Below are positions 1 through 25,890 of a stretch of 25,890 bases of DNA, piece by piece. Below the pieces are notes generated by a model. That model was given only the letters and a program-made list of their open reading frames with translations, did not search any database and was not told the origin of the DNA. The DNA comes from Patescibacteria group bacterium (GTDB taxonomy: Bacteria; Patescibacteriota; Gracilibacteria; BD1-5; UBA2023), in assembly GCA_049301335.1 (NCBI GenBank), contig JBAQKV010000119.1, positions 1-25,890 of the forward strand. Direction: 5' to 3'. Position numbers and translations under genes: made by a program. How positions within the stretch are numbered: the first letter of the stretch is position 1; each line of letters starts with the position of its first letter.

Positions 1-1411
1 TCTCGGTAGCGTCGCTGATGAACGCGATGGCCTCTTGAAAAACCCCGTTCTCGTCACGAATCGTCGTCGCGAGAATCGAGACCGGCACGGGCACTCCGTC
101 TTTCGTGAGGAATTCCACGTCGTACGAACGGTGTTCGGTCGTCATCATGGTCGAGGATTTCTTTTCGAGAATCTCGATATTCCGGGCGTCGAGAAAATCG
201 CGTACGTTCTTCCCTACGATTTCATCTTCCTCGTATCCGAGGAGGGAACAGAAAGAAGCGTTCACTTCCCTGACGTTCAAATCGGCGTCGATGGACCAGA
301 ATCCCTGCGAAGTGGAATCGAGGATTTTTTCGAAGCGGGCGTTCGTCCGCCTGAGCGCTGATTCCACTTCTTTCAAACGGGTAATGTCGAATTTGATGGC
401 GATGAACCGGTCGTATTCGCCCTTGGCGTTCTGGAGGGGCGTAATGGTCGTATGGGTGTAATAGCTTTCGTCGCTCCCCTGTTTCGGAACCGGGTTCTGA
501 ACGACGCCGCTCCAGACTTTGCCCGCGAGAACGGTCGTCCAGAGTCCTTTCCAGAATTCGTCGTCCTGGTATTTTTTTCCCCCGAGCATCCGTACGGGTT
601 TGCCGACCACGTCCCTCTCGTCTCCGGACAATTTGCGGTACAAGTCGTTCGCGTAGCGGATGATGCCGTCCTTGTCGACGATCTGCACGATGGCGCTCTG
701 GTCGATCGCGCGGACGTAATCGTCGAGCATCATCCGGGTTTCCTCGCGCTCGGTGACGTCGAAGACGAAGCCAAAGGACTGGATCGCCCTGCCGGATTCG
801 TCGTATACGACATGGGTATGGTCGTGCACGAAGCGGACGCGGCCGTCGGAATGGAGGATGCGGTAGTACAGGTCGTACTCGGGAAGCTTTTTCTGATCGA
901 CGTTTTCGTAGATTTCCCGTTGGACGCGCATGAAGTCGTCGGGATAGATGAGATCCACGAAGGATTTTCCGCCGTTAAGGAAGTCGTTCGGGCCGTACCC
1001 GAAATTCTTCGCGACGTTCGTGCTGACGTTGGATACGGTCCTATCGTTGGGGCATTCCCAGGCGAAATAGGTCAGCGGGCTCTTTTCGAAAATCCGAAGG
1101 AGATTCGCCGCGTCGGGAGTGGACACCTGGGTAAGGACGCGTTTGCGGAATTTCGTCAGGAAACCGAGGTCGGCGAGGCCGTTCTCGAAGTTCTCGGAAC
1201 GCTCTTCGATAAGGTCGTACGCCCGGTCGAAATCAAGGAGGTCGGCCGCCTTCAAAGAGTATTTCGAGGTGAAATACCTGATTCAGAGTTCGATTTGCCG
1301 GTCTTTCGGATCGGCGTTCACGGGACGTTCCCGCCCAGAGGCGATGCGGTCGGCGACGCGCACGAAATCGTCTACGGAATACGATTCGAGCTTCGTCTTC
1401 ATTGCTTGCAT
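1..1411 (-). CDS. multi-PAS/PAC sensor protein, N-terminal ~470 codons (3' end beyond left edge); 1 UGA(Gly)
   Basis: Absent from the supplied track because it has no in-window stop and carries an in-frame TGA at 1283-1285. I checked every triplet of this frame from 1411 to 2: the only stop-type triplet is that TGA, with no TAA or TAG. Start is ATG 1411-1409 (alternative ATG 1402-1400). Three PAS-like modules are present, e.g. FAWECPNDRTVSNVSTNVAKNFGYGPNDFLNGGKSFVDLIYPDD...YRILHSDGRVRFVHDH; AIVQIVDKDGIIRYANDLYRKLSGDERDVVGKPVRML; FEKILDSTSQGFWSIDADLNVREVNASFCSLLGYEEDEIVGKNVRDFL...YDVEFLTKDGVPVPVSI. The + strand ORFs 35..361, 105..461 and 452..1417 are antisense shadows. Confidence 0.75.
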
Positions 1412-1422
1412 GGTTGATGGGT

Positions 1423-4400
1423 TTATCCGCCGGAGGCTTTCTGACGGAGTATCGATTCTATTTTCGCTTTCAGGTATCCGATGGCCTTCTTTTGTCCGGC
1501 TTCGGGAGCCTTTTTCGCACGCGCTTCGAGGTATTTCTTCACCGGGTCGAAAAGACGTGCCATCTTCCTGGGATTTGACGAAGCTTTGACAATTATGTCA
1601 GATGCTACGGATTCGGCAAGCGCATCGAGCGCGGACTTGGTTTCCTGGGTTACGACGGCGTTCTTACCCTTGAGGGATTTGTCTTTGAGAACCGAAGAGA
1701 GGTTGCCGGCGCCCATGGAGGAATCCGTTGCGGAAGTCGGAACCGAAGGCTTCGTCACTACGGCGGGAACTTTGCCGGAGGTAGGATTGGAAACCGTGGA
1801 AGAAGTGGTTCCGGTAGAGGTTTTCGGAGCGGTTCCGCAGCTTCCGTCGTAGTAACTCTGCGAGTAATCACCCAACGGACAGGAGTCGCGGAGTTGCGCC
1901 GAACTTCCTCCTCCGCCGCCTCCGCCGGAGAAGGTTCCGGAAGAATTGCCGCCGGAAGAACCGCCCGAAGACGATCCGCCGCCGGAAGACGCGGCGGTCG
2001 AAGTGACGGAAACCGAGCAGGACCCGGAACCTCCGGCGCCGGCGACGTTCACGACGTAGCGGGTTACCGCGCTCGCCGAAGGAATGACCGAAAGCGAACC
2101 GGAAAGCCCGAGGGAAACGTTCCCCGGAACGAGCGTCGCCGAAGAGGCGTCGGAAGCCGTCCACGCGAGCGTGACGGAATTGCCGTCCGTAACGGAAGCG
2201 GGAGTCGCCGAAACGGTACAGGTGGGCACCGGCGGCGGAACCACGGAAACCGCGGCGAAATAGGAGAACTTGTCGGTGGCGAACGCGAGGCGTCCGGAAG
2301 CGTTGGAGAACGTGGTGGAGTTCGATTGGTCGACCCAATTGATGCCGTCTTCGCTCCTCAGGATGCGAAATTCGGAAGAAGGCGCCATATCCGAGAACGA
2401 GACCACGACGTTGCGGTCGAGTTCCATTCCCACGCCGAGGGTGTCCGCGCCGATTTTCACGATCTTGGCGACGTTCATCGAACGCAGCGACGTACTGCCC
2501 GAAGACGTGACGGCGCGGTCGGAGAGGAATCTCGAAGGATCGACGTTTTCCCCGAGGACGAACCCGCCGTTCCACGTGAGCGTGCCGGACGCGGTGAGCG
2601 CCACGACGTTGGTAGCTCCGGTTTGGGTAGTGAGGGTGATTCCTCCGGAAGAAGTCACGGAGAGTCCGGCTCCGGTGCCGGAATCGGCGATGAGGATGCC
2701 GCTTCCCGGGACGGAATAGCGGGAATTCACGGAAGTGGAATCGTAACGGCGGAGAACGCTGTCGCCCGTGAGCGAAACGGCGTTTACCGAAGTCGCGAGG
2801 ACTTCCGGAAGCCGTATGGTTCCGGAATACGCGGCTTGGGCGTATTGGCTTGAGAAAATGCGGGTGGCGAACGCGTAGTTGGACTTCTCGGCGTTCCAAT
2901 CGCGGGCGAACGTAAAGCTCTTGTCCGGCGTCTTCTGGTAGTAGTTGTCGACCGTCCACTGGTTGACCTGTTTGAGCGAGTCGGTACCGGTTCCGTACCA
3001 AGCCTGAAGATACGAGGATTTCGACGTATCGAAGTTCGTGCCTTCTCCGGCGAAGCGGAGGTCGACCCGCGCGTAGCCGTCGTTATTGGCCTTGTATTCG
3101 GGACGCATGAGCGCGAAGTGCGGCGGAGTTTCGTCCACGTCCTTCGCGAGGTCGGCGGTTTCGCCGAAGTAGTTCGTGTCGGAGAGGTTGTAGAGCGACT
3201 TGTAGATCTTTCCGTACACCGAACGGTAATCGATGCCGACGCCGAGCCAGTTGTCCTTGGAATTCTTGAACGAGAGGTTTCCGTAGGTTTTCTGCGGAAG
3301 GGCGTTCAAAAGGTTGGAGTTATTGGAAAGCACGAACATTCCGCCGCCTTCGCCGTGGTCGGTCCCGATATCGCCGTTGACGGCGACCGTTCGTCCGAAT
3401 TCGGAGAACACGACGATCGTCACGTCGTGGCGGGCTTTTACGCGGTTGAAGAAGTCGGTAAGGCGCGAAGCGACGTTCCCGATGTTGTAGTTGAGGTCTT
3501 TCGGAACGTTGTTCGGATCGAAATTCGAAGACGGAGCGAGCTGGTTAGAGTGGGTGTCGTACCCGCCGTCGGCCTGCATATAGAAGGTCTTCCCTACCCC
3601 GTTGTCGAGGAGGGTCTCCAAGAATTTGAGATTGTTGACGTTGCCCCATCACGCGCCGTCCGGCCCCCCGGAAGCTTTGGATTGGGTGGCGACCTGGTCA
3701 ATGCGGATGGCGCCCTGGAAGACGTCTCCGGCGGAATCCGGATACGTACGCCCTCCCGCGATGTCGCGGATGGCGTTCAACTGGGCGGTAGCTTCCGCCT
3801 GCGATACGTAGCCGTTGGAAAGGATCGCGCCGGACGGTCCGATGTTGGCATAACGGCCGGAACGGAAAACGTTCGGGCGGCGGTTGCCGAGCGAGATGGC
3901 GTCGGTGGAGCTCGCGGCGGTCTTGACGAGTTCGCCGATGACGCCGTCGGCGTCCGCGACGGTCGTATTACCGTACGAGGCGATCTGCTTGGCGGCGGCG
4001 TCGTGGTCGCGGGAATGGTTCTTCGTACCTACGCGGTTGAAAATGCGGAGGTTATCCGAGTCCCAGAGCGACTTGAACGAAGGCGAACCGCCGGAGCCGT
4101 AGGCGATGGCGTTATTCAAGTAGAAATCGCCGAGGTCGGTAAGACGTCCGGTATCGAGCGCGATACCGGAACCGGTAGCGAGCGTGCGCTTGCTGACGTA
4201 CTCGGAATACTCGTTTTTCGGAATGACGCCGTGGAGCCAGTCGTATCCGCCGCCGAGCTCTACGACGATGAGCTTGCCGGAAGCTCCGGAAATCGGCGAA
4301 TAGCTGCCGCCGGTCGATGCCGCGGGAAGGTCGTAGCCGGTCTGTATGACGTACTCGGGCTGCGCGAGGACCATCGCGATGGCCGAGCGGATTTTCTTGC

Positions 4401-6297
4401 GCTGGTAGGTCGCGTCGTACGGAAGGAACGCGACGGCGTTACCGGATTCGTCGGTCGTGAGGAAGGTTTCGATCTTGGCACGAACGTCGGAAGGAAGCTG
4501 GCGCCCGAGGAGGAGTTCGGCTTGGAGCTTGTCGATGAATTCCGACGGGCTCGCGAGCCGAGCGAGGTTGGATGCGGCGCTTACGGCGAAAGAACCTGAC
4601 GAAACCGCTACGGGAAGGGCGCCGGTTCCGGTCGGCTGGAGCGTTCCGGACGGTACGTCGAGAGTCAGGGCGAGCGGATCGTAGAGTCCGGAAGAAATGG
4701 AAATCTTGCCGTTCTGGGTCGTGATGGAGAATTCCGGAAGGTTCACGGTAGGCAAAGAGAACGCGAGCGTTTCGGTGGCTCACGAGTTCGTTACGGCCGG
4801 AGTGACGTCGGCGGTACCGGAAAGGAGGACGACCGAACCGGTGTACGAAGACCCGGAAGAAGTCGAAACGGACGTGGCGATCGAAATCGGGGTCGAAGCG
4901 GCGGGAAGGTAATCGGAAACCGAATACGAGCCGGTGGAAGTGGCGTACGCGATGCGGTTCGCGTAGGTGATCCACTGGTTCTGGAGATAGGTCGAGTACC
5001 ATTTGGCGTTGTCGTCGTACCCGTCGCGACCGAAAACGCTGCCCGGAGAATACGGGGTCCAGTTGAAACGCGAGAGAAGCGAAGTGTCCGAAAGCATCGG
5101 ATCGACCGCGGACGGATCCTTGTAATGAAGGAGTTTCGCGGTTCCTATGGTGAGTTCGACGGGATTCTTATACGCGAGAGCGTTCATCGAAGCGTCCGAA
5201 TACATAGCGTCGCTCGCGAGGAACGTCCGTACCGTGGGTAAGAGGTCGAAGCCGTTGGATTCGATGGTCGAAGCGAGCGCGTCGACGTCTTGGCGGCGCG
5301 GATTGTCGTGGGCGTAAAACCGAAAAATGCGGTTCGCGAGGAAAAGCGCAATCTGGTGCTGGCGCTTCGCGAAAACGTAATCGATGGCATTGTCGGCGAG
5401 ACCGTCGTTCGCGAAAAGCGGCGTTTCCATCGCGGAAAGGTCGAGGGTTCCCGAAGCGGAGTCATAAAACGGGAAATTCACCGAAGATGCCCCGGAAAGG
5501 AAGAGTACTCCGGTGGAAGTGTTATGATACGCCGAGTCGTAGCTGACGATGTGGGTCACGGAATCGGAACGGAAACCCGTGAGCACCTTGGCGAACGCCG
5601 CTACGTCGGATTCTTCGTAATTGCGGGCGTCGCCGGCTTCCTTGGTCTTGCCCGGTTCGTATTCGCCCATGAGGAAGAGCTGGAGCAGTTCGCGGGCGTA
5701 GTTCTCGTTGGGGTAACGCCTGTCGGACTGGTCGAGAAGGTCGAGGAATTTGCCCTCGGCGTAATCCCCCGTCCCCCCGTTGCCGAAAAGGACGCGCTTC
5801 ACCATCGACTTGTAGTTGCCGAGGGAATTCGCGTAGAGGAGGTCGCGCTGGTCTTGGACGTCCTTGTAGGTAATGGACGACCCGTTGGCGTTCACGGAGA
5901 AAATATCCTCGAAAAGGAGGGCGAACTTCGCCTTCGCCTCGTACGGGTCGCGGGCGAGCTTGTACTGGTAGTACTTGTACATGCTGCCGCCGTCGCCCCA
6001 GTTGAAACCGCTTCAGGTGAGGTTGGCCATTTCGGCATTGAACGCCGAACGGTCGGGGCCGACGTCGCTCGGGAACAGCAAAGCCACCGCGTTCGCGGCG
6101 GAGCCAGCGGAATAGAGCGAATCGACCATGGTCGGAGTCGCGGCGAAAAGGGTTTTCCGGGCGAGGTGCTCGGCTTTTTCGCGGGTCCAGTTGGCGGAAG
6201 TGCCGTCGGTGGTTACGGCGTACGCCGGAACGATCTGCACGCCGGGGAGGACGACGGCAAGGGCGACCGCGATCGAGCGGCGGATGAAGTTTCGCAT
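1423..6297 (-). CDS. secreted giant fusion protein (1624 aa): DUF1800-like + DUF1501-like (alkaline-phosphatase/sulfatase superfamily) + beta-rich/Ig-like/Gly-Ser-rich C-terminal extension; 3 UGA(Gly)
   Basis: Track ORFs 6013..6336, 4780..5982, 3649..4755 and 1423..3621 share one frame (all low ends = 1 mod 3). They are separated only by TGA at 6013-6015, 4780-4782 and 3649-3651. The bridging codons translate cleanly (SGFNWGDGGS; ATETLAFS; WGNVNNLKF). Signal peptide MRNFIRRSIAVALAVVLPGVQIVPAYA starts at ATG 6297 (alternative ATG 6336). The DUF1800-type body runs from ...NENYARELLQLFLMGEY... to its usual C-terminus ...IRSAIAMVLAQPEYVIQ, then continues without a stop into DUF1501-type motifs KLIVVELGGGYDWLHGVIP, ADGGYDTHSNQ and VVFSEFGRTVAVNGDIGTDHGEGGGMF. 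After that come ~500 aa of beta-rich sequence, an Ig-like module (PTCTVSATPASVTDGNSVTLAWTASDASSATL), a G/S linker, CPLGDYSQSYYDGSCG and a basic helical tail. True stop is TAA 1423-1425. Confidence 0.8.
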
Positions 6298-6329
6298 GGA
6301 GGTTTCCAAGTAACGGAAATACGCAAAAT

Positions 6330-6356
6330 CCGCCATTTTACGGCGGTGGGTTTTTT
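6330..6356. terminator. short GC hairpin (CCGCC-N7-GGCGG) flanked by A/T runs; likely terminator of the NicO-fusion gene, or a leader element of the giant gene
   Basis: Plus strand reads aaaatCCGCCattttacGGCGGtgggtttttt. On the minus strand the hairpin is followed by AUUUUGCGUAUUU. It lies between the TAG stop at 6439-6441 and the ATG at 6297. The stem is only 5 bp. Confidence 0.4.
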
Positions 6357-6436: not shown

Positions 6437-6438
6437 TA

Positions 6439-8046
6439 CTACCAGACGAGGAAAAGCGAATACGCGGTCACGGCCGTCATGGCCAAGGCCGAAAGCGCCG
6501 AAGACCTCCGGGCGAACGAAGGGGCGTATCCGAACGCTTTTTCCCGAAGGAAATACGTGACGCAGAGCACGAGGAAAAGGCAGGCGAAGATGCCGATTCC
6601 GAGCGCGGCCAAGAGCGGGAGCGCCCATCCGATCTTTCCTAAGGAAAAAAGTACGAGGAATATCCCCCACCCGAACGCACAGGGGGCGAGCCCGGCGAAG
6701 AAGCCGGCGAGGAGGTCTTTCCATCCGGGCATGGCGCGGAATTCGGCATCCGGAAGGACGACCGGGTTTTTCCAGTCGCGGTACGCCCTGAAACAAAGGT
6801 ACGCGGAAAGTCCTACGAGTCCGAAGCTCCCGAACCTTTGGACGAAGAGCATGTACGGCCCCGGATCGAACGCCTCGAAAACGTACTTGGTGAGAAGCAC
6901 GAGGATGGCGACGTCGGCCAGGTGCGTCACGGTGAAGACGAGAGCGAAAGCGAGCCCGGAAAAGAATCCGCGGCGACGGTCGAGAACCGATGCGGCGAGG
7001 AGCGTTTTGGCATGTCCCGGCCCCGCCGCGTGGACGAAGCCGAGCCCGACGGTCAAGGCGAACAACCCCCAGAAACCGGGCGCCGACGGGTCTTGTACGA
7101 ACTTGGTCACGCCCTTCAGCACCTTTCGGAAAAAATCCGCTCCGTAGACCGAAGAATCGAGAAGCGAGACCGGCGCCTGGAATCTCGCGGAATCGGACGT
7201 TTTTCAAGCCGTCTGAACTCCCGCTCCCGCGGTTTGGGACGAAGACGCGGCGCCCGTGTTCGCGCCCGCCAATCCGGAAGGCGCTCACGCTCCTCCGGGC
7301 AAAACCGCCGCCACCGGTTCTTCACGGTGTTTCTGTCCCGGCGACAAGGCCTTGGAAAGCGGGTTCCATCCCCACATGACCTCTTCGCCGTCGGTATAGA
7401 AATCGGCGTCGGTATCGGGGTTTTTCGCATCGGTCCGGTACGCGCGTTCTTCTTCGTCCGAAAGGCCGTCGTTATCGGAATCGAGTCCCTTCGCCGGAGC
7501 GCCGGAAGCCATGTCGAAGGAAAAATCGGGCAACACCGGGGTCAGCACCTTGTACGCCAAAGTCGAACCGTCGCGCCCCATGAGCGTGAGCCGGTTCGTC
7601 TGAAGCGGCAGTTCGTCGAATATCCGTACCGAGACGTCCAATTTCCTTACGCCGTCCCCACACGAAAAAGAATACGACACGGGGAAGCCTTCCGAGAATA
7701 TTTCGTCCACGGCCATCTCGCGGGTGGAAAATCCCCCGATTTCGCAGGGCTTGCCGTTATTGGAAACCTTCACGGTTTCGCGGAGGTAGTCGAAAACGAA
7801 ATCCTGCTTCGAATAGTAGTCGCCGAACGTGATCGAGCGCATGGGCACTCCCCTCTTTCCGAGGATCCGTTCGACTTCCGAGGGATGGACCGCGGTCGTC
7901 GCGGTCACCGAATTCCCCTCCGCGGTCATCGAAGTCGCCGAAACGTCGAGCGGATGGGCGAACGCCGGAGCGGCGGAAAACGCGAAAAACGCGGCGGCGA
8001 GAAAGCCGGTCGCGAAGCGGCGGAGCGACTTGGATTTCGATTCCAT
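6439..8046 (-). CDS. fusion (535 aa): signal peptide + secreted domain of unknown function + thrombospondin-type-3-like Asp-rich repeats + G/A/S linker + NicO/RcnA-family nickel/cobalt transporter membrane domain; 2 UGA(Gly)
   Basis: Track ORFs 7285..8127 and 6439..7122 are in the same frame. They are joined by 54 codons containing TGA at 7285-7287 and 7204-7206 and no TAA or TAG (linker GAPSGLAGANTGAASSSQTAGAGVQTA-G-KTSDSARFQ...). The likely start is MESKSKSLRRFATGFLAAAFFAFSAAPAFA (ATG 8046-8044). DSDNDGLSDEEE and NPDTDADFYTDGEE resemble DxDxDGxxDxxE calcium-binding repeats. The membrane part carries the NicO signature GFVHAAGPGHAKT plus about 6 hydrophobic segments. Stop is TAG 6439-6441. 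Confidence 0.7.
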
Positions 8047-9272: not shown

Positions 9273-9335
9273 GGAAAATCGGAAGTACCGGACGGTCGTC
9301 CGGAATCGGCGATACGATACCGAAACGCGCGAGGA

Positions 9336-9363
9336 TTGGAAATTTTTTCGGATAGGCTAGAAT
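9336..9363 (+). promoter_or_regulatory. sigma70-like promoter TTGGAA-16-TAGAAT for the lipoprotein gene
   Basis: -35 at 9336..9341, -10 at 9358..9363, about 28 nt upstream of ATG 9392. Confidence 0.5.
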
Positions 9364-9391
9364 CCGGGGCGTATCCGAACCTGCAGAACCC

Positions 9392-10006: not shown

Positions 10007-10026
10007 CGTTGCGCAAGAGCCGTTTA

Positions 10027-10055
10027 TTGGCGTTACGCCGACGAAATGGTATACT
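10027..10055 (+). promoter_or_regulatory. candidate extended -10 promoter (TTGGCG-17-TGgTATACT) for the three-gene small-protein operon
   Basis: TATACT at 10050..10055 is preceded by TG at 10047-10048. The -35 (TTGGCG, 10027..10032) is weak. Confidence 0.4.
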
Positions 10056-10082
10056 CGAACGGTATTCGTTCACTCACTTAGG

Positions 10083-10379: not shown

Positions 10380-10388
10380 GGCCCGACC

Positions 10389-14850: not shown

Positions 14851-14884
14851 TGATATGATTGCCCCATACCCCTAAATCCGATCC

Positions 14885-16835: not shown

Positions 16836-16849
16836 ATCGTTTTGGGGAA

Positions 16850-18112
16850 TTAGCTTTCTTTCGCCGCGGCGTAGACTTCGTCGAGGGAAGTGAGACCGTT
16901 GAGGGCCTTCATGATGCCGTCCTGTTCGAGGGAAATCATGCCCGCGTCGATGGCGGTTTCGTTAATCAGCACGCCGGAAGCCCCTTCGAGGATGAGCTTT
17001 TTGATCTCCGGGCCGATTTCCATGATTTCGTAGATACCGACGCGGCCGGAGTATCCGCTGTTTCCGCACTGGTCGCAACCGACCGGTTCGTAGAATACGG
17101 GATTCTGGAGGATTTCCATCGAAACTCGGGAAGTGAGTTCCGTTTTGTTCGTACGGGAGATGGCCTTCTTTACGGAAGCCTGCATGCGCGGTTCGAGCTT
17201 GTCGGCGGCGATGGCCTTGCGGCAGTGCGGACAAAGGCGGCGGATGAGGCGCTGCGCGATGATCGCGTTCATCGACGCCGGGAGGAGGAACGCCGGTATC
17301 CCCATGTTGAGGATACGGGTGATCGTTTCGGCGGCGGAGTTCGTATGGATGGTCGAGAGTACCAAATGTCCCGTGAGGGACGCTTCGATCGCGATGTTGA
17401 TGGTTTCACGGTCGCGGATTTCACCGACCATGATGATGTCCGGATCCTGACGGAGCGCGGTACGGAGACCGGAAGCGAAGTTGTATCCGATATCCGGGAA
17501 CATCTGGCTCTGGTTGACGCCGTCGATGACGTTTTCTACCGGGTCTTCGAGCGTCATGATGTTGACGTCCGGCTTGTTGAGGCGGGTAAGGCACGAGTAG
17601 AGCGTGGTCGACTTACCGGAACCGGTCGGTCCGGAAGTGAGGATGATGCCGTTCGGGAGCGCGATGGCGCGCTTGAGGATTTCGCCGTTCTGCCCTTCGA
17701 TACCGAGAACGCTCAAATCCGGGATCTTCTTCGATTTGTCGACGATACGCATTACGATCTTCTCGCCGGAAACGGTGGGGAGCGTCGAGACGCGGAGGTC
17801 GAGCGGCTTTTCGTCGATGGTAACGGAGATGCGCCCGTCCTGCGGCATGCGGGATTCGTCGATCTTGAGGTTCGCGAGGATCTTGTAGCGCGCTACGACC
17901 TGCGGATGGAGGAACTGCTGGTATTCGAGGATTTCTTCCAATACGCCGTCCACGCGATAGCGGATGCGGACGTAATTGGAGAGCGGTTCGATATGGATGT
18001 CAGAAGAGCGTACCGAAACCGCGGCGCTGATAATCAGGTTACAGATCTGCTGGGCGTTGTCGCCCTTGTAGATCTCCTCTTTCAGGCGTTCGATGTAGGA
18101 GTTCGTTTGCAT
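16850..18112 (-). CDS. pilB: type IV pilus assembly ATPase PilB (GspE family, short form without N-terminal domain), 420 aa
   Basis: Walker A GPTGSGKST, Asp box and Walker B ...LRQDPDIIMVGEIRD, His box LTGHLVLSTIHTN, and a tetracysteine motif CPHC...CDQC. TAA stop, no UGA. Confidence 0.9.
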   Translation of the reverse strand: MQTNSYIERLKEEIYKGDNAQQICNLIISAAVSVRSSDIHIEPLSNYVRIRYRVDGVLEEILEYQQFLHPQVVARYKILANLKIDESRMPQDGRISVTIDEKPLDLRVSTLPTVSGEKIVMRIVDKSKKIPDLSVLGIEGQNGEILKRAIALPNGIILTSGPTGSGKSTTLYSCLTRLNKPDVNIMTLEDPVENVIDGVNQSQMFPDIGYNFASGLRTALRQDPDIIMVGEIRDRETINIAIEASLTGHLVLSTIHTNSAAETITRILNMGIPAFLLPASMNAIIAQRLIRRLCPHCRKAIAADKLEPRMQASVKKAISRTNKTELTSRVSMEILQNPVFYEPVGCDQCGNSGYSGRVGIYEIMEIGPEIKKLILEGASGVLINETAIDAGMISLEQDGIMKALNGLTSLDEVYAAAKES

Positions 18113-18130
18113 GTCGTGATGATGACGGGC

Positions 18131-19381
18131 TTATTTTGCCGCTTTGGCGTTGGTCTTCTTAGGAGCGCGTTCGAGAATCGCTTTCTGCTTGAGGTATCCG
18201 GTTTCGATGGTTTTCGCGGAAGCGTAGACGGAGAAGACCTTGTCGAATTCGGTGGAGAGGTCGGTGACGGTAGCCGCCTTGACCATCTCCTGGCTGCGGG
18301 CGTCGAGGGCGGTGATTTCGCCAACGAGCGACTTGAGGGCGGAAACGGCGGTGACCCCGGCGTCCGACTCGCATACGTCGGACTTCTTTCCGTTGCAGGA
18401 TTTCGAGAGCGCGTCGACGTCGATCTTGAGTTTGCGAACCTTTTCGCTGACGAGGGTGCGGATTTCGACGAGCGAAGAGTAGGTGCGGCCCTTCACGTAG
18501 AAGGAAAGGGAGAGGTCTACGCGGTTCTTGGCTTCCGGATCGTCGAACGACGACTCGGAGCTGAGATTGTCGATCGTCATGAGAAGGTTGTTCAAGTCCG
18601 AGAGCGTCGGATCCTTCTTGTTCTTAGAGGTCGGATAGAGCGCGACGAGCTTGCCGTCTTCGATCTTCACCTTGCCGGAATTCTGGATGTAGTCGACGAG
18701 CTTGAGAATTTGGGAATTCTGCCCTTCGATCTGGAAGTCCACTTTGAAGGTTCCGATATTGACGATGGAACTCTTCGAATTGTCGAACGAGACCTTGTCG
18801 ATACCGAGCTGGCCGAAGGTGTTGACCTTGAACTGCTTGAAGACGTCTTCCTCGATATGCCTTACGAAGCTCGCCATGGTGATGCGGTCCTTGTCGAAGC
18901 CGAGTTCGTCGCCCGGAAGCGATTCGGTGAAGGTCGGGATGACGTTACCGATGATTTCGCGCTTTTGGGCGATCATGTCGTCATAGCGCCCGATGGATTC
19001 CTTGCCGACTTCCTGATTGAGCCATTCGTAGTAGGTTCCCGAATATTTCGGATCTTTCTCCATGGCGGAAGCGATCTTGTCCTTATCGGCGAAGATCGGG
19101 TTCTTGGCGGCCTTTCCTCCGATTCCCGAGAGGGCGGCGGCGAATTCGGCGGGGGTCATTCCGTCGTTCCGAAGTTTTTCAATCTTGGAAATGAGGTCGT
19201 TCGCCTGATCGGTCTTCGCGGAAATCTCCTCATACTGAGGCATGACGAAGGCGAAAACGACGACGAGTACGATGCCTACTACGAAGCCGTTGAGGACCAT
19301 CGAACGGGCGAGGCGTTCTTTGCGTTTCTTTTCTTGTATCGCGAAGTTTTCTTCGTCGATGTCGGGTGCTTGCTGGCTCAT
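18131..19381 (-). CDS. bitopic membrane protein (416 aa) in the T4P operon; PilO-like layout (N-terminal TM + coiled coil), function unassigned
   Basis: Intact ORF. It has the TM helix MVLNGFVVGIVLVVVFAFVMP followed by a coiled-coil segment. It starts 2 nt after the upstream stop, and its own stop lies 18 nt before pilB. TAA stop. Confidence 0.7.
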   Translation of the reverse strand: MSQQAPDIDEENFAIQEKKRKERLARSMVLNGFVVGIVLVVVFAFVMPQYEEISAKTDQANDLISKIEKLRNDGMTPAEFAAALSGIGGKAAKNPIFADKDKIASAMEKDPKYSGTYYEWLNQEVGKESIGRYDDMIAQKREIIGNVIPTFTESLPGDELGFDKDRITMASFVRHIEEDVFKQFKVNTFGQLGIDKVSFDNSKSSIVNIGTFKVDFQIEGQNSQILKLVDYIQNSGKVKIEDGKLVALYPTSKNKKDPTLSDLNNLLMTIDNLSSESSFDDPEAKNRVDLSLSFYVKGRTYSSLVEIRTLVSEKVRKLKIDVDALSKSCNGKKSDVCESDAGVTAVSALKSLVGEITALDARSQEMVKAATVTDLSTEFDKVFSVYASAKTIETGYLKQKAILERAPKKTNAKAAK

Positions 19382-19383
19382 GA

Positions 19384-20271
19384 TTACGGGCGGTTACCGG
19401 TAGCGGAGGGAACGTAGCGGAGATTCAGGGAGAGTTTCGTTACGGTCGAGAACGTCGATCGGATACCGACGTCGGCGGTGGAATATTTGGAAATGTCGAG
19501 GGTCTTGGGAGGATTGAGGATGCGGAATTCGCTGCCGTCCAAACGATCGAGGAGCGCGATGGCGGTAATGCGCGAAGAACGCGATTCCTTGTAGGCGCTG
19601 TCGTTCAACGATCCTCCGTAGGTTTCGCAATCCACGGTGAATTCGCCCTTTTCGTTGAATTTATAGCGGGAGCAGCTGATATCTTCTCCGTGGTAATCGG
19701 ATTTGGCGACGATATCCTGAAATTCGCCCACGACTTTGCCGAACGCGATACGCGAATCGCCCGTGCGTTCCTTGATGAACTGAACCTCGGGAGAATTGAT
19801 GGCGTCCCCCGCTTCGAGACGTTTCGGCACGAGTACCAAGAGGTTGTTCGCCATGGTGGATTCGACCTGTTTGAGTTCTTCGGTCTTGTCGGCCATAATC
19901 TGGGTCGGCATTTTGCAATCGGTATTCTCGAATCCGTCGATGCCGAAAGAGAGGTAGTCGCAAACCGGGAGGTTTTCGAGGAATCCCGGAGTATCGAGGT
20001 CGCGGATCGTCGAATCGATGCCGAGAATGACGACGGCCACGAGGGAAACCTTCATGGCGACGTCGAGGATCTTCGCCCCGATTTCGTGCGGATCCTTCTT
20101 TTGTGCGGTCTGGACCCCCGGCGATGGAGCGTCCTTGAAGAAGTTTTCGCCGAGCCCCTGGAAAATATCGTCGCCCATCGTGAGCGGCGAAGGAACGTTA
20201 CCACCCGGGGAAGCCTGGTTTGGAGCCGCTCACTGGGTCGGGTCTTCCTTTTTGTTTTGAAAAAAAGCCAT
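19384..20271 (-). CDS. bitopic membrane protein (295 aa), first gene of the T4P operon; 1 UGA(Gly)
   Basis: ATG 20271-20269 gives MAFFQNKKEDPTQ[TGA 20230-20232]AAPNQASPGGNVPSPLT, which joins track ORF 19384..20178 (MGDDIF...). It has a single TM (KVSLVAVVILGI) and a Cys-containing extracytoplasmic domain. The alternative start is ATG 20178. TAA stop. Confidence 0.65.
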
Positions 20272-20305
20272 ACGTGTTCGGCACGGAATTAAAAGTACCG
20301 AAGCG

Positions 20306-20334
20306 AGTATAGCAGGTAATTTTTTTCTTTGCAA
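20306..20334 (-). promoter_or_regulatory. sigma70-like promoter TTGCAA-17-TATACT for the T4P operon
   Basis: On the minus strand the -35 is at 20334..20329 and the -10 at 20311..20306. The predicted leader to ATG 20271 is about 28 nt. Confidence 0.45.
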
Positions 20335-20368
20335 AAAGGGCAGCCCCATAATGGCTTGCCCTTTTTGC
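20331..20368 (-). terminator. long hairpin terminator after dinG
   Basis: GCAAAAAGGGCAGCCccataatGGCtTGCCCTTTTTGC: about 15 bp of stem with one bulge, and a U-rich 3' arm on either strand. It starts 15 nt after the TAA at 20383-20385. Confidence 0.55.
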
Positions 20369-20382
20369 TCTTTGCGTAGCGA

Positions 20383-23127
20383 TTAATCGGCGAACGGAAC
20401 TTCGGCCGACCCGTCTTTGGCTCCGGCGTTCGACGCGGCGCGTTTTTTTTCGAGGAGTTCGGCGAACGAATCCATCGAGCCCTTACGGATGCGGATTCCT
20501 TCGGGAAACGCCCCGGGAACCGCCCTTCCCCATGACGAATTCACGCGGGGGTCGAGAATCACGACGACTCCGCGGTCTTCCTTCGTGCGGATGAGACGGC
20601 CGATTCCTTGGCGGAGTTTCAGGAGCATCTGCGGAACCGAATACTCGGCGAACGGGTCGCGGAACAGTTTGGAACGGGCCATGACGACGGGATCCGTCGG
20701 TACGGCGAACGGAAACTTGTGGATGAAAAGCATTTCGAGGTCTTTCCCCGGAATGTCGACGCCTTCCCAAAAGCTGTCGGTCCCGAAAAGCGCGCTGTGG
20801 TCGGCATATTTCTTAAACTGTTCGATCATCTTGTGCTTCCCTCCGGACATGCCCTGCGACAGAAGTTGGATGCCTTCCTTTTTCAGAACGGGATTGACTT
20901 GGAGGTACGCCTCCTTGATGCTCGCGAACGACGTAAAAAGGCAGAGCGTGCGTCCGCCCATGGCGGAAATCGCGCGCGCCACGAACGCGTTGACCCTGCG
21001 GCGGTCGAATTCGCTCTTCATGTCTCCGAGGTCGTCCGGAAGGAAAACCGTCGCCTGTTGGTGGTAGTCGAAATCGGAATCGAGGATATGGAACGTGAAA
21101 TCCTGGAGTCCGAGGGTCTTTTTCAGAAAATCGAAATGTCCGCCGATGGCGAGCGTCGCGGAGGTGAGCACGACCGAATCGAGCTTGCTCCAAAGACGTT
21201 CCTTGAGCACGCCGGAAACGTCGAGCGGCGCGAGGGCGAGCTTGCATTCGCCGTTATTCTTGAGGGATACCGTCTTTATGAGATCCGTTCGCGACGCCGA
21301 GAAGAATTCCTCGAGAAGTTTGGCATACCCAGAAAGGTCGGAGAGTTGCGCGCTGAAGGCTTCGAAAAGCTTATCCGGAGCGGCTTCGAGACGTCCGGTG
21401 AGGTCTTTGAGCTTTTCGAAGACCGAAGAAATCACCGAAGGCATTCCGGAAATCCCTTCGGAAGTGAAGAAATCCTGGGTCACGAGCACGTCGGTGGAAC
21501 GTCCGCCCGCGTACCCTCCCCTGCCGGAATCGTTCATTCCGGCCTTCACGAAGGCGTAGCGTTCCGCGAAATCGAGCGCCATTCCGTACGACAGTACGAA
21601 AGATTCCGAAATCTCCTTCATTTCGGGGAAGAGGAATTTTTCAGCTCCCGATTGGCGGTTGTGGCGGCGGATATGGGCTTCAATGCGGTTGAACGTCTTT
21701 TCGATGTCGGCGAGCAGGAGTTCGCACGTGAGCGCGTCGGTGGCGGCGGCTTCGAGGTTATGGGCCTCGTCGACGATGAGGCGCGAAAGCTTCCCTACCG
21801 TACCGGTCGCGTCGTCGGCGAGTTCGGTAAGGATGAGGGCGTGGTTCACGAGAACGACGTCGGCCGTTTTGGCGGCTTCGCGGGCGGCGTAGAGCGGTTC
21901 TTTTTTGCGGTACGGGTTGTCCGGCGAAAGCACGCGGGCGTCTCCGGCGTGGATTTCCGCGAGGAATTCGTAATCCTTTCCGTAGAACGAGACTTCGTCG
22001 AGTTCGCCGGTCTTGCTTTCGGCGAGCAGGATGGAAACCTTAGCGAAGAAAAGCTTGGCTTCTTCCGGAAAATCTTCGCGATCGGCGAATTCGGCGAACT
22101 TCAAAAGGCTCACGTAGTTGGAGCGCCCCTTGAGTTTGGCGAAGCGGAACGTATCGAGCCCGTACGGACGGAGGATATCACGTAGACGCGGAACGTCCTT
22201 GTAGGCGATCTGGTCCTGGAGGGTCTTGGTATTGGTCGAAACGTGGACGCGCGCACCGTCGAGGATGGCGGACGCGACGGCCGGAACCATGTACGCGAAG
22301 GTTTTTCCGATACCGGTGGGCGCTTCGATGGCCACGAGGGATTTCTTATCGACGGCGTCGCGTACGATGCCGGCCATTTTGGCTTGTTCGGGACGTTTTT
22401 CAAGGCCGGAGTTACGTTCGAGGATGGAAACGGCGTCCGGCGCGTCGAACGGGCGTTCCGGGGCGGGTGCCTCGACGTATTCCGAAAGCCCGGCCTCGAT
22501 CTTCTCGAAAAGCTTGCGGGCGTCGGTCGGCCCCTCGTCGCCCATGGCCCATCGGACCGTCGTGGGGAACGAGGAATTGGGCGCCGAGTGGTCGCGCAGG
22601 AAGCGGTAAATTTCGCGGACCGTACCTTGCGATTCCTTGATGCGGCGTACGGCCTCACGGAAAATGGCGACGGTGGCGCGGGTGTCGGAGAGAGCGCGGT
22701 GGGCGCCTTCGTGGAAATACCCGGACGCGTCGGCGAGATTGGAAAGGTTCATGCTCTTCTCGTGGCGGAACGCGAGCTGGGCGACCTTGAAACTGTCGAT
22801 GACGACGCGGTTCGAAAAATCGAACCCGTACGAGGAAAGGAACGCCGTATCGAAATCGGCGTTATGCGCGAGCACCGGGTCGTCGCCGAAGAAATCCGCC
22901 ACCTTGTACCGGATGTCGCCGAAACCCGGGGCCTCGGAAACGTCTTCGTCGGTAATGCCGGTGATGTTCTCAACTTCTTCCGAAATCGAAATACCCGGAT
23001 TCACGAGGCTGGAAAACTCTTCGACCGTGCCGTCTTCGTTGAACCGCACCATCGCGATTTCGATGATGGCGTCTGATTTTGGGTCGAGTCCGGTGGTCTC
23101 GAGGTCGAAGGCTACGATGGAAGGCAT
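20383..23127 (-). CDS. dinG: DnaQ-like 3'-5' exonuclease fused to DinG-family DEAH helicase (914 aa)
   Basis: The real start is MPSIVAFDLETTGL (ATG 23127-23125). DEDDh motifs: DLETTG, HNADFDTAFL, HRALSDTRAT. Helicase motif I is APTGIGKT and motif II is DEAHNL. The C-terminal RecA-like domain carries ...SATL..., ALFGTDSFWEGVDIPG and LRQGIGRLIRT. I see no Fe-S cysteine cluster between motifs I and II, which matches the Firmicute-type architecture. TAA stop, no UGA in 914 codons. Confidence 0.9.
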   Translation of the reverse strand: MPSIVAFDLETTGLDPKSDAIIEIAMVRFNEDGTVEEFSSLVNPGISISEEVENITGITDEDVSEAPGFGDIRYKVADFFGDDPVLAHNADFDTAFLSSYGFDFSNRVVIDSFKVAQLAFRHEKSMNLSNLADASGYFHEGAHRALSDTRATVAIFREAVRRIKESQGTVREIYRFLRDHSAPNSSFPTTVRWAMGDEGPTDARKLFEKIEAGLSEYVEAPAPERPFDAPDAVSILERNSGLEKRPEQAKMAGIVRDAVDKKSLVAIEAPTGIGKTFAYMVPAVASAILDGARVHVSTNTKTLQDQIAYKDVPRLRDILRPYGLDTFRFAKLKGRSNYVSLLKFAEFADREDFPEEAKLFFAKVSILLAESKTGELDEVSFYGKDYEFLAEIHAGDARVLSPDNPYRKKEPLYAAREAAKTADVVLVNHALILTELADDATGTVGKLSRLIVDEAHNLEAAATDALTCELLLADIEKTFNRIEAHIRRHNRQSGAEKFLFPEMKEISESFVLSYGMALDFAERYAFVKAGMNDSGRGGYAGGRSTDVLVTQDFFTSEGISGMPSVISSVFEKLKDLTGRLEAAPDKLFEAFSAQLSDLSGYAKLLEEFFSASRTDLIKTVSLKNNGECKLALAPLDVSGVLKERLWSKLDSVVLTSATLAIGGHFDFLKKTLGLQDFTFHILDSDFDYHQQATVFLPDDLGDMKSEFDRRRVNAFVARAISAMGGRTLCLFTSFASIKEAYLQVNPVLKKEGIQLLSQGMSGGKHKMIEQFKKYADHSALFGTDSFWEGVDIPGKDLEMLFIHKFPFAVPTDPVVMARSKLFRDPFAEYSVPQMLLKLRQGIGRLIRTKEDRGVVVILDPRVNSSWGRAVPGAFPEGIRIRKGSMDSFAELLEKKRAASNAGAKDGSAEVPFAD

Positions 23128-23259
23128 TGGCGCGGGTTTTTGAACCTGCCGATTGTATCCGGAAGAGCTTGGAAAGCCAGACCGAAAGGCATCTGAGTTT
23201 CGACTTTCGCACGAAGGGAAAATGCGGTACGATACGGACGTAGAGATAACCGTCTTTTT

Positions 23260-24441
23260 ATGAAAATCCGCGAATTGAAAAAGCCCGTGCTTTCCGCCGT
23301 GGCGTTTTTCTCCACCGTCGGAATCCTTTCCGTAGGCTATTCGGCCTTCGTTACGAACTATCCCGCAACCGCTACGGCCGGGACCTCCCAATTGTCGGCG
23401 ACCGAGTGGAACAAGATGGTCGCAGCGCTCCAAGCGCTCGATACGAACCTTTCGAACTTCCAATTCTCCAGCGGAAACGTGGGAATCGGCTGAGCGACCG
23501 ATCCTTTGGCAAAACTTACCGTAACCTCCGTCGGGGACGGCGGCGCGTGATTGGTATTGCTGAAGAAATACGACAATACCAACGCCATAGCCAACGGCAT
23601 CGGAGGATTGCGTGCGCGCGGAACGCTCGCTTCTCCGTCCGCGCTCCAGACGAACGACCGGTATTTCAGTCTCATAGGCGCCGCGCATGACGGAACGGCG
23701 TTCAGCAACGACGCGGCGATCCAGATGTACGCGGGCGAAAACCATACCGCCACCGCACACGGCTCGTTCATGTCTTTCGAAACCGCCGCCAACGGAGAAT
23801 CGGTACGAAGCGAAAGGATACGCATCGATTCGCTCGGATGAGTCCTCATGGGATACACGTCTTCGTACCCGTTCACGGCCCAGGGTTGGGGAAATTTCAA
23901 CCTCCTCGTGAACGGCACTACGAATAAGAACGGGGTCGGCATCGACGCTACCGGAGGAGGCGCTTCGGCGGTTCCCCTCGTATTGCGAACGCCGAGCACT
24001 ACGCTCGAATCGTTCTATTACAATACGACCGGCGTAGGAAACATCACGACCAACGGTTCCTCGACTTCGTACAACACCACGTCGGACTACCGGCTGAAAG
24101 AAAACGTCGTCGACCTTACCGGCGCGCTCGACCGCATTTCCAAACTCGGCGTCCACCGGTTCGATTACAAAACCAATCCCGAACGCACCGTCGACGGATT
24201 CCTCGCTCACGAGTTGCAGACGGTCGTACCGGAAGCCGTTACCGGAACCAAGGACGCCGTGGATGAAAACGGCAAACCGGTCTACCAGCAGGTCGATTAT
24301 TCGAAGGTCGTCCCCCTCCTTTCCGCCGGCATTAAGGAACTCAAGGCCGAAGTCGATTTGAGAAACGCCGAAATGGCCGAACAAAAAGCGGAAATCGAAG
24401 CCCTCAAAGCGGAGATTTCCAGACTTGAGAACGCGAAATAA
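23260..24441 (+). CDS. membrane-anchored tail-fibre-like protein with C-terminal intramolecular chaperone (peptidase S74-type) domain, 393 aa; 3 UGA(Gly)
   Basis: Track ORFs 23260..23493, 23551..23841 and 23848..24441 share one frame and are joined through TGA at 23491-23493, 23548-23550 and 23839-23841. The N-terminal anchor is MKIRELKKPVLSAVAFFSTVGILSVGYSAFV. GNVGIG-type fibre motifs are present. The C-terminus TTSDYRLKENVVDLTGALDRISKLGVHRFDYKTNPERTVDGFLAHELQTVVPEAV...VDYSKVVPLLSAGIKELKAEVDL plus a coiled coil matches the endosialidase/tail-spike chaperone domain (SDxRxK). TAA stop. Confidence 0.8.
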
Positions 24442-24450
24442 TCGGAAGTA

Positions 24451-25890
24451 CTATTCCGAATCGAAGAGATGGAAGTACTGGAGGTTTTTCCAATCGGACA
24501 GCGCCGCTTCGCACTCAGGCGAGTTTCTGGAAATCGACCCCGGAATCGGCAAGCACCCCGAAGCCTCGGAACCCGCATGGAAGACGGCGTCCTTCGGCGA
24601 AAGCCCGGCAGCGCCGAAAACGACGCCGGAGAAATTCGCGGCGCGGACTTTTCCGTATTCGCGGGTCGGCGCGGCCGCGCTGAAGTTGTCCCAAACGAGG
24701 AACGGCGTCGTATGCATCAAGAGGTATTCCTCTTGCGACCAAGCGCTTTCGTCGAGGGTTTTCAGATATCCGGTTTTCGCGTACGTCCGGTACGCGTCAC
24801 CCAAGATGCCCATGTGGTCGCCAAAGAACGCCACTACGGTGGGGCGTCCGGATTTTTTCAATTCCTCTGCCAAACGTCAGAGCTCGCGGTCGGCGTCATG
24901 GATTCCTTGGACGTAATTTTTCAGAGTCAGTTTGTCGTCTTCGGAAAGGGACGGCGCTTCGACGTCGATTTCGTGATCGGCGTATTTGTCGCCCTCGTAG
25001 GAAAAATGGTTCTCCATCGAGATAGCGAAAACGAAAGCCGGCTTCCCCGGTTCGCTTCGGCCCTTCAATTCGGAAAGGATCGTATCGGTCAGCACCGAAT
25101 CGGCCACGAATTTCCCCTTGATGGGAGCATTCGGAATGTCTTCGAGCCCAACGAACTTTTCGAATCCGAGGAGCGGATAGGCTCAAGAACGGTTAAAGAA
25201 CGACTTGTGGTAGGTATGCACGGCCTCGGCGGAGTATCCGGCGGAACGGAACTCGAACGGCACGGACGGGATCGGATTCCTCAGGTACTGCTGGTACGGG
25301 ATGCTGCCGTTCGGGAGCCAGGCGATCGGAGTACCGGCAAGCACCTCGAATTCCACGAGCGCGGTCTTGCCTCAGAACATGGGCGAAACGAAATCCCCTC
25401 CCCCTTTTTCCGAGCGAAGCTTGCGGAAATTGGGAATCGGGTCTTTCGAAAATCTCACTCCGGGGAGTTTGGTAGGATCCCAGAACGATTCGCTCAGGAT
25501 GAGCACGACGTCGGGGCGGACCGATCCGGAAGAATCCGGCGTTTCAAAATTCGACGCGGCGAGTTTTTCCACTTTCGCACGATCGTAGCCTTCCGGCTTT
25601 TTGACGAACGCGTTGCCGAGATTGGTAAAGAACCCCCCGACGAAGCCGTTGTCCGCGTAGTTTTCCATCTGCCGCCAGGAATAGTCTTCGGGCTTGAGCG
25701 CCGCGGCAGTTTGAATTACGGTGAGCGTACCGTAGGCATTGGTAAAAACCGCGGCATGGAAAAGGGCGAGAGCGGCAAAAAGGGCGATTCTGAAATTCGA
25801 GGGGCGGCCGGCGAATCGAAACGGAGAGTGCGAAACCTTGCGAACTTTTCCGTCAGCTTTGCCGAGCAAAAAGAAAAACGCGACCGACAA
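24451..25890 (-). CDS. LTA-synthase-like / sulfatase-family (alkaline phosphatase superfamily) membrane enzyme, 5' end beyond right edge; 3 UGA(Gly)
   Basis: Track ORFs 25372..25890, 24877..25107 and 24451..24873, plus an unlisted 25186..25371 segment, are all in one frame. They are joined through TGA at 25372-25374, 25183-25185 and 24877-24879. Motifs: RPDVVLILSESFWDP, SPMF[TGA]GKTALVEFEVLAG, FVFAISMENHFSY, PTVVAFFGDHMG. Stop is TAG 24451-24453. Confidence 0.75.

Follow-up and report, generated by a model that had tools for sequence, protein, structure and literature searches.

The 25,890-nucleotide stretch of DNA analysed here (the window) is best explained as part of the chromosome of an uncultured bacterium of the Gracilibacteria/BD1-5 type (Patescibacteria/CPR; GTDB class JAEDAM01) with NCBI translation table 25, under which UGA is read as glycine and translation ends only at UAA or UAG; we put the probability of this reading at about 0.93. 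It is preferred because UGA lies in frame in 13 of the 21 genes, is conserved or exchanged for GGN codons among relatives, falls on conserved glycines, and is never the terminal codon of a gene. Such a bacterium would have a dedicated tRNA-Gly(UCA), aminoacylated by GlyRS, for reading UGA, and would have lost release factor 2, leaving RF1 as the only factor for termination; both steps are drawn from what is established for the lineage (Campbell et al. 2013; Rinke et al. 2013; Shulgina and Eddy 2021, PMC8629427). The bacterium lies at the GC-rich end of its clade, where mutational pressure may have lowered UGA to ∼4% of Gly codons without abolishing it.

Gene models and stop codons

Gene models were built from ORFs bounded by TAA or TAG only, and the frame was picked on three grounds: a protein-like translation, matches to Pfam, and conservation. 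Once TGA is read as sense, the window contains 21 genes that occupy 95.5% of its length, in agreement with the "about 95%" of the first-pass annotation of this DNA. Twenty gene ends are visible, since the twenty-first gene (PAS, bp 2–1411) runs past the start of the window and its stop is outside the view; 17 of these ends are TAA, three are TAG, and none is TGA, and no TAA or TAG interrupts any of the 21 models. Both the tally and the lack of interruptions had been claimed before, and the independent models likewise recover all 24 previously listed in-frame TGAs, with none missing and none extra, spread over 13 of the 21 genes. The exact GC content, which the first-pass annotation had left to be computed, is 57.2%, and the GC3 of the genes is ∼0.75.

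Eight genes are free of TGA, and all of them end in TAA. On the plus strand these are rplS (11184–11540; Ribosomal_L19 Pfam match) and dnaA (11789–13216; Bac_DnaA, DnaA_N, and Bac_DnaA_C matches), whose products were the queries for finding relatives, an rsmI-like methyltransferase gene (14151–14804; TP_methylase match), and two gene models for a hypothetical (13229–13600) and a charged hypothetical protein (14885–15559). On the minus strand they are the pilB ATPase gene (16850–18112; T2SSE match, E = 8e-125), a gene model for a hypothetical protein (18131–19381), and a gene for a DinG-like exonuclease-helicase (20383–23127; RNase_T, DEAD_2, and Helicase_C_2 matches) whose orthologue in the related locus L002 carries seven in-frame TGAs. 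A permutation over Gly codons found eight TGA-free genes not to be unusual (P = 0.87), and the idea that housekeeping genes avoid TGA was dropped. Neither a DnaA-box search nor a GC-skew profile pointed to an origin beside dnaA; the skew follows the coding strand.

UGA as a sense codon

All 24 junctions between the standard-code ORF fragments are in frame, which for unrelated neighbours would occur by chance with a probability of (1/3)^24 = 3.5e-12. The off-frame density of TAA plus TAG is 0.7% per codon, so the open runs of hundreds of codons that follow most of the TGAs are not attributable to chance. The first-pass annotation had also held that recognizable domains continue across the TGAs, and this stands for DUF1800, RNase_HII, Sulfatase, T2SSF, and CYTH, whose Pfam matches span them. 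Positions 1–418 of the 419 in the DUF1800 profile match across TGAs 6013 and 4780 of the DUF1800-DUF1501 fusion gene (1423–6336, minus strand; 1637 aa; third TGA at 3649); positions 1–197 of 199 in RNase_HII match across TGAs 9228 and 9051 of the RNase HII-QueH fusion gene (8061–9272, minus strand; RNase_HII and QueH matches); positions 1–176 of 179 in CYTH match across the tandem TGAs 13736 and 13739 of the CYTH-domain protein gene (13613–14128, plus strand); and positions 1–292 of 301 in Sulfatase match across TGAs 25372, 25183, and 24877 of an LtaS/GacH-type sulfatase-family phosphoglycerol transferase gene (24451–25890, minus strand; 5′-end past the window). The gene for PilC, the type IV pilus platform protein (15684–16835, minus strand), is matched twice by T2SSF, and the match is continuous across TGA 15951.

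The domain claim is weaker in two places. The DUF1501 match is partial, and position 3649 lies just N-terminal to the stretch that HMMER matched. In the gene for a tail-fibre-like surface protein (23260–24441, plus strand), which has a Peptidase_S74 chaperone domain at its C-terminus, TGAs 23491, 23548, and 23839 are all upstream of the Peptidase_S74 match, and it is the homologues, of which more than 6600 were found, that align across them. A minus-strand table-11 ORF overlaps this tail-fibre region upstream of DinG and has an antisense-looking junk translation. The DUF1800-DUF1501 fusion protein carries a signal peptide, and its C-terminal extension is long.

The same TGAs are present in at least six independent assemblies (NCBI, JGI, and Logan) with 82–94% nucleotide identity to the window. 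This recurrence, together with replacements that are mostly GGN, argues that the TGAs are not errors, pseudogene stops, selenocysteine codons, or tryptophan codons. Retention of the standard code, with the TGAs as true stops resulting from pseudogenization, from sequencing or assembly errors, or from the presence of separate adjacent genes, would fit the table-11 gene calls on related public contigs, which show just such fragments; the in-frame junctions, the domains that run on across the TGAs, the identical TGAs in independent assemblies, and the total lack of TGA gene ends at 57% GC with no TAA or TAG inside genes nevertheless make it exceedingly improbable.

Glycine as the meaning of UGA

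Aligning the UGA columns to PDB and database homologues, a check the first-pass annotation had proposed, returns glycine where the column is conserved and tryptophan nowhere. The conserved columns are Gly in standard-code homologues, as in the RNase HII DE-x-GRG motif, the PilC column, and the sulfatase/GacH GG(T/K)TA motif, which reads GGGTA in the PDB alignment to GacH. Within the clade TGA interchanges with GGA, GGC, or GGG at nine of the 24 columns, and at least one GGN or Gly counterpart is found among relatives or homologues at 14; about ten of the 24 are variable (with T, N, D, S, A, or R in the homologues) and are uninformative rather than contradictory. In the reciprocal test, with orthologues from 45 related loci, 508 of 719 in-frame TGAs lie opposite a Gly of the window, about ten times the Gly background, and none lies opposite a Trp. 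Taken together, the alignments support UGA as a sense codon here with glycine as its best-supported meaning, and the glycine reading of the first-pass annotation is thus borne out by the PDB Gly columns, the GGN exchanges, and the reciprocal test. A mini-Codetta run against the relatives assigned every other informative codon its standard meaning; a further reassignment of CGG and CGA to Trp, reported in some relatives, was rejected, as both codons came out as Arg.

Among the individual columns, TGA 9228 of the RNase HII-QueH gene lies within the motif DEAGR[TGA]P, where PDB structures of RNase HII have G and L003 has GGC, and column 9051 is GGG in L002 and GGC in L003. The PilC column at 15951 is TGA in six and Gly in six of 12 related loci, and G in the PilC structures 3jc8 and 2whn. 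Of the sulfatase columns, 25372 is G in GacH (5wcx) and in L003, 24877 is G in LtaP (4uop), and 25183 is variable. Column 3649 of the DUF1800-DUF1501 gene is GGA or GGC in all seven close relatives; columns 4780 and 6013 are TGA in five relatives and CGA or GCA in two. Column 13739 of the CYTH gene is GGC in L001, L047, L048, and L004, column 13736 is TGA in eight assemblies and GGA in L045 (nucleotide alignment), and in relatives farther removed the tandem site shows N, R, G, or D. The gene for a PAS-domain sensor protein (2–1411, minus strand, 3′-end past the window start; PAS_9, PAS, and PAS_3 matches) has a TGA at 1283 that is kept in L047, L048, and L052, whereas L002 has Gly there. A gene for a secreted or membrane protein with a bacterial TSP3 repeat (6439–8046, minus strand; TSP3_bac match) has TGAs at 7285 and 7204; the latter is TGA in all seven close assemblies, and the former is TGA in two and CGA or CGT in the others.

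Three small hypothetical genes lie on the plus strand. The first (10083–10379), an ORF conserved in L001 and L002, has a TGA at 10230 that is TGA in three assemblies, GCA in two, and Ser in L002. In the second (10389–10826) TGA 10752 precedes the TAA stop by 24 codons, and the column is GGA in L049 and L052 and Gly in the L002 and L003 orthologues, both of which reach the same C-terminus. The third (10861–11091) has TGA 11017, which is TGA in seven assemblies, GGA in L002, and Gly in L003. Variable columns include 20230, in a hypothetical gene that adjoins the pilus genes and is conserved in 11 loci (19384–20349, minus strand), where relatives have TGA, S, A, or Q, and those of the tail-fibre-like gene, where 23491 is mostly T, 23548 has G as its top residue, 23839 is N or D, and W does not occur. 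The gene for a lineage-specific lipoprotein (9392–10006, plus strand), with a signal peptide and lipobox in its translation, has TGAs at 9455, 9563, and 9707 that are kept in four to five assemblies; its variants are GGA at 9563 in L049 and L052, TGG at 9455 in L051, and GCG or TCG at 9707.

That single TGG, in one strain, is the one column that points to tryptophan, the meaning of UGA under table 4, the code of Mycoplasmatales, of several endosymbionts of insects, and of some Eggerthellaceae. Table 4 yields the same ORF continuity and coding density as table 25, but TGG is a one-base neighbour of TGA and here occupies a nonconserved site after the lipobox, W occurs at no UGA column in PDB or database homologues, the nucleotide exchanges are between TGA and GGN at nine columns, and none of the 719 TGAs of the relatives lies opposite a Trp. 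We consider a tryptophan reading highly improbable. Selenocysteine, for which UGA is the codon in many bacteria, or programmed read-through at specific sites, would have to account for 24 sites scattered over 13 unrelated genes, those for lipoproteins and pilus proteins among them, and for a tandem TGA TGA at 13736–13741; the aligned residues are Gly rather than Cys (C in four of 719), and an Rfam scan of the window at the gathering threshold gave zero matches, SECIS elements included, so the chance that either applies is minute.

A subtler alternative is that UGA is sense but ambiguous or noncanonical, through near-cognate reading without tRNA-Gly(UCA) or as a mixture of Gly, Arg, and Trp, tolerated since the codon is rare and mostly at variable positions. 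Such decoding would suit a codon that makes up only 3.9% of Gly codons, with about ten variable columns, several of which exchange with CGA or R. A tRNA scan found none in the window, and no tRNA with a UCA anticodon was found in the window and the 45 related loci (∼0.65 Mb in total, with few tRNAs there at all); a few JAEDAM01 genomes have a tRNA-Trp(CCA) with a 4-bp anticodon stem that might misread UGA (NAR 2026, PMC13092985). However, CGA and AGA are mere one-base mutational neighbours of TGA, UGA is kept where Gly is strictly required (the catalytic motif of RNase HII and the column in PilC), and the alignment to Gly is clean clade-wide, and we regard ambiguous decoding as unlikely. The prfB gene is absent from the ∼26 kb window, which covers only part of the genome.

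Lineage and relatives

The first-pass annotation had suggested a Gracilibacteria-type lineage, and by the single marker used for placement, DnaA, the relatives are indeed Gracilibacteria MAGs that share the recoding. The window DnaA is 91% identical to that of Candidatus Gracilibacteria RS261 and 64–73% identical to those of many Gracilibacteria MAGs, including CG2_30_37_12 (68%), and these relatives share TGA as Gly, some of them at identical columns. Table 25 is established for this clade, GTDB class JAEDAM01 (PMC8629427; PMC11393006; PMC13293708; bioRxiv 10.64898/2026.05.24.727570). The nearest relatives are public MAGs, most of them labelled Candidatus Gracilibacteria. At NCBI the very nearest are labelled 'Candidatus Peribacteria', the name of a group that nominally uses table 11; since these MAGs have the recoded TGAs themselves, we take the label to be an artefact.

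The closest are GCA_964482035.1 (CAYZVC010000001.1, 'uncultured Candidatus Peribacteria bacterium binchicken_co284_85'), JGI 3300028826 contig Ga0310076_1089489, and Logan contigs from SRR22388250 and SRR22387963, all with the same gene order as the window, 92–94% nucleotide identity to it, and a GC content of 57%. Their TGA codons are mostly those of the window (14 of 17 comparable columns in L001), with a few differences between TGA and GGN or CGA, and they are labelled and gene-called as standard code. Exact-protein look-ups found no match for PilB or DnaA and a match for L19, so the window is a distinct strain or species, 92–94% identical to public contigs and identical to none.

Genes in the public records of the clade were called with table 11, and some of the records bear the name 'Peribacteria'; its proteins are consequently fragmented in the databases. 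PilC, for example, is split into 88 and 294 aa and DUF1800 into 216 and 182 aa. Table 25 repairs 13 of the 21 genes in the window.

GC content and UGA usage

UGA as glycine persists in this clade at 57–59% GC, and its usage tracks genomic GC over an approximately 50-fold range, from 65–85% of Gly codons at 19–31% GC to 1–5% in the GC-rich branch, which makes the clade a useful data point for codon-capture models. The suggestion that a GC-rich member would be unusual holds only mildly; at 0.572 the window is above the published range for code-25 clades (0.21–0.53; PMC8629427), and sister MAGs with a GC content of 53–59% can already be found in public databases. We raise only tentatively the possibility that the window and these sister MAGs form an undescribed high-GC branch with code 25, in which GC pressure cut UGA from 65–85% to 1–5% of Gly codons. 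Such a branch would amount to a natural experiment on how a captured codon erodes, and could reveal whether a stop codon, once reassigned, can drift towards vanishing and whether the state with tRNA-Gly(UCA) and without RF2 is irreversible. Nothing is overturned here, because the code, the lineage, and the GC range up to 53% are already published; the window is a known code in a known lineage.

Comparison with known systems

Table 25 has been described in Candidatus Gracilibacteria (BD1-5/GN02) and Absconditabacteria (SR1) (Campbell et al. 2013; Rinke et al. 2013; Hanke et al. 2014, PMC4032931; Shulgina and Eddy 2021, PMC8629427). As in these groups, the window has UGA at Gly-conserved columns and only UAA and UAG as stops, and its gene content is of the CPR type, including genes for type IV pili and for numerous lineage-specific proteins. 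It differs from the published code-25 clades in its GC content of 57.2%, and from the AT-rich members sampled, where UGA is the dominant Gly codon, in that UGA is a minor one. In its high GC content it resembles Candidatus Hodgkinia cicadicola, whose reduced, GC-rich genome (58% GC) uses UGA as Trp (cited in PMC8629427) and which likewise keeps a UGA stop-to-sense reassignment at high GC; the two cases thus go against the simple expectation that ties such reassignments to AT-rich DNA. The meaning of the codon is nonetheless different (Trp in Hodgkinia, Gly in the window), and Hodgkinia is an obligate insect endosymbiont of a different phylum in which the reassignment had an independent origin.

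In-frame TGA codons

Gene calling with the standard code (table 11) gives a broken-up ORF track in the window (25,890 bp, 57.2% GC); when stops are limited to TAA and TAG, long fused ORFs appear whose translations look like ordinary proteins. Independent gene models with TGA as a sense codon contain 21 genes and cover 95.5% of the window, close to the ∼95% proposed in the first-pass annotation, and they reproduce exactly the 24 in-frame TGAs it had reported, with none missing and none extra (minus strand: 1283, 3649, 4780, 6013, 7204, 7285, 9051, 9228, 15951, 20230, 24877, 25183, and 25372; plus strand: 9455, 9563, 9707, 10230, 10752, 11017, 13736, 13739, 23491, 23548, and 23839). Its claim that no gene ends in TGA also stands, as the ends in our models are TAA (17) or TAG (3). 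TGA accounts for 24 of 618 glycine-type codons (3.9%) in these genes, whose GC3 is ∼0.75.

The frame is kept at all 24 fragment junctions (expectation for unrelated neighboring genes, (1/3)^24 = 3.5e-12), and TAA plus TAG occur off-frame at 0.7% per codon, so long open continuations past the TGAs are not expected by chance; chance cannot explain the in-frame continuity. Recognizable domain sequence also runs unbroken over the TGAs, as had been suggested: the Pfam families DUF1800 (profile positions 1–418 of 419), RNase_HII (1–197 of 199), Sulfatase (1–292 of 301), and CYTH (1–176 of 179) match across them, and T2SSF matches across a TGA.

Meaning of UGA

Glycine lies opposite TGA at the columns that are conserved among solved-structure homologs using the standard code. 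The catalytic motif of RNase HII (gene at 8061–9272, minus strand) reads DEAGR[TGA]P, compared with DE(V/A)GRGP in three PDB entries. Glycine likewise lies opposite the TGA of PilC (15684–16835, minus strand) in PDB 3jc8 and 2whn, and in the sulfatase (24451–25890, minus strand) TGA 25372 aligns with G in GacH and TGA 24877 with G in LtaP. In orthologs from 45 related loci, found by scanning GTDB representative genomes with DnaA (L001–L045), the window's TGA columns hold mainly TGA or Gly; the PilC column has TGA in six loci and G in six, and columns 10752 and 11017 are G in both L002 and L003. In the reciprocal direction, the window has Gly opposite 508 of the relatives' 719 in-frame TGAs, with Ser next (29) and Trp absent (0), a count that is decisive for the meaning of UGA. 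About ten TGA columns lie at variable positions, where homologs have T, N, D, S, A, or R, and are uninformative. All other informative codons are standard, including CGG and CGA (Arg).

Further independent assemblies (JGI, NCBI, and Logan) that are 82–94% identical to the window, found through an L19 look-up, keep most of its TGAs, and at the nucleotide level TGA is swapped with GGA, GGC, or GGG at nine columns; the non-GGN differences at TGA columns in close assemblies are one-base neighbors (CGA, GCA, and one TGG). The CYTH gene (13613–14128, plus strand) carries a tandem TGA TGA (13736–13741), the second of which is GGC in L001, L004, and the close assemblies L047 and L048, and TGA in close assemblies L049–L052. 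Because independent assemblies keep the same TGAs, assembly error and pseudogenes are excluded. Table 4 (UGA = Trp) is excluded because homologs have Gly at the conserved TGA columns and Trp at none, and selenocysteine is excluded by the lack of a SECIS or other Rfam match in a scan of the window together with the lack of Cys enrichment at the aligned columns. The structural homologs, the relatives' columns, the reciprocal matches, and the nine TGA/GGN columns thus support the earlier reading: UGA is translated, is Gly at every informative column, and terminates no gene in the window.

Lineage, decoding, and GC content

No sequence identical to the window was found among the public sequences retrieved. 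It is 92% identical in nucleotide sequence to CAYZVC010000001.1 (GCA_964482035.1) and a 532-kb JGI contig, and 93–94% identical to two Logan contigs. Its DnaA is 91% identical to that of 'Candidatus Gracilibacteria' MAG RS261 and 64–73% identical to those of many other Gracilibacteria MAGs, including Crystal Geyser genome CG2_30_37_12, a placement in keeping with the lineage first proposed. Several of the nearest MAGs bear the NCBI label 'Candidatus Peribacteria', whose parent Peregrinibacteriota is a table 11 group; we treated this label as an artifact because those MAGs share the same recoded TGAs. The published UGA = Gly clade is GTDB class JAEDAM01, BD1-5 and Absconditabacterales, with tRNA-Gly(UCA) and RF2 loss as its hallmarks (PMC8629427; bioRxiv 10.64898/2026.05.24.727570; PMC11393006; PMC13293708; PMC4032931), and the window's clade, by DnaA, is exactly this one. 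By lineage, a dedicated tRNA-Gly(UCA) would decode UGA, and RF1 alone would terminate translation at UAA and UAG; the preponderance of TAA among stops in the window (85%) despite 57% GC fits such decoding. No tRNA(UCA) was found in the window and the 45 related loci scanned, regions with few tRNAs.

The remark that the window is GC-rich holds, mildly: its GC is 0.572, and that of L001–L004 and L045 is 0.53–0.59, against 0.21–0.53 published for Absconditabacteria and Gracilibacteria (Shulgina & Eddy, PMC8629427). This branch, already represented by several public MAGs, is at or slightly over the published ceiling. Among DnaA relatives GC falls with growing distance from the window, to 41–50% in those 71–74% identical and 19–38% in those 52–68% identical. 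Across orthologous genes of L001–L045, TGA makes up a smaller part of the glycine codons as genomic GC rises (65–85% at 19–31% GC, 3–12% at 36–50%, and 1.4–5% at 53–59%), and UGA is the dominant glycine codon in AT-rich members. In-frame TGAs persist in the CYTH and sulfatase genes of L003, so UGA recoding is retained at 59% GC. Codon counts for the window, L001–L004, L008, and L045 show that some codons nearly vanish in the GC-rich branch. In the window ACA is one of 444 Thr codons, and this one (20275) may precede the actual start codon of its gene; there is a single CTA and there are five CCA codons, yet ACT occurs 44 times and CTT 112 times. ACA is common again in relatives with GC ≤45%.

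Gene fusions and neighborhood

DUF1800 and DUF1501 are usually encoded by two adjacent genes. Here they share a single 1637-aa ORF (1423–6336, minus strand) with no stop of any kind at the domain boundary. Some 190 aa are inserted within DUF1800, and the protein continues past its domains for ∼650 C-terminal residues, among them a low-complexity tract rich in Gly and Ser. A 403-aa protein joins RNase HII to the epoxyqueuosine reductase QueH; both Pfam families match the one product, and the fusion is kept in L002, L003, and L047–L052. The type IV pilus block (15684–20349, minus strand), pilC-pilB followed by conserved genes at 18131–19381 and 19384–20349 that lack Pfam matches, keeps its gene order in 11 or more of the related loci.

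A tail-fiber-like gene (23260–24441, plus strand) lies between DinG and the sulfatase in this CPR chromosome, with no other phage genes nearby. Its product has a C-terminal Peptidase_S74 intramolecular chaperone domain and >6600 database homologs, one annotated 'tail fiber domain-containing protein [Candidatus Gracilibacteria bacterium]'. A minus-strand table 11 ORF of 1356 codons overlaps it; the first ∼430 codons resemble antisense junk and were rejected as coding, with the DinG-like gene starting at 23127, which settles the overlap in favor of the first-pass model.

Two short segments, 14863–15217 (at a charged hypothetical gene, 14885–15559) and 9300–10400 (a lipoprotein and small-gene region), cannot be aligned to the 92–94% identical relatives and look like local hypervariable spots within an otherwise collinear region; codon 10230 is deleted in L050 and L051. 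GC skew tracks the coding strand throughout the window (C-rich, about −0.13 to −0.18) and shows no replication switch. A search of the window found no DnaA-box cluster beside dnaA, and its sole TTATCCACA-like site (one mismatch, 20718) is not above chance.

Annotation of the clade

Public records of this clade (L001/L048, L047, and L049–L052) are labeled 'Candidatus Peribacteria' or gene-called with table 11, and consequently database proteins are fragments: PilC appears as 88 + 294 aa, DUF1800 as 216 + 182 aa, and RNase HII-QueH is truncated to 329 aa. The practical value of the present analysis is correct re-annotation of these records, and its evolutionary value is one data point on UGA usage versus GC. 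The original observation is confirmed and its interpretation as UGA = Gly supported; both the genetic code and the lineage are already known, and the window represents a member that is mildly unusual in its GC content.
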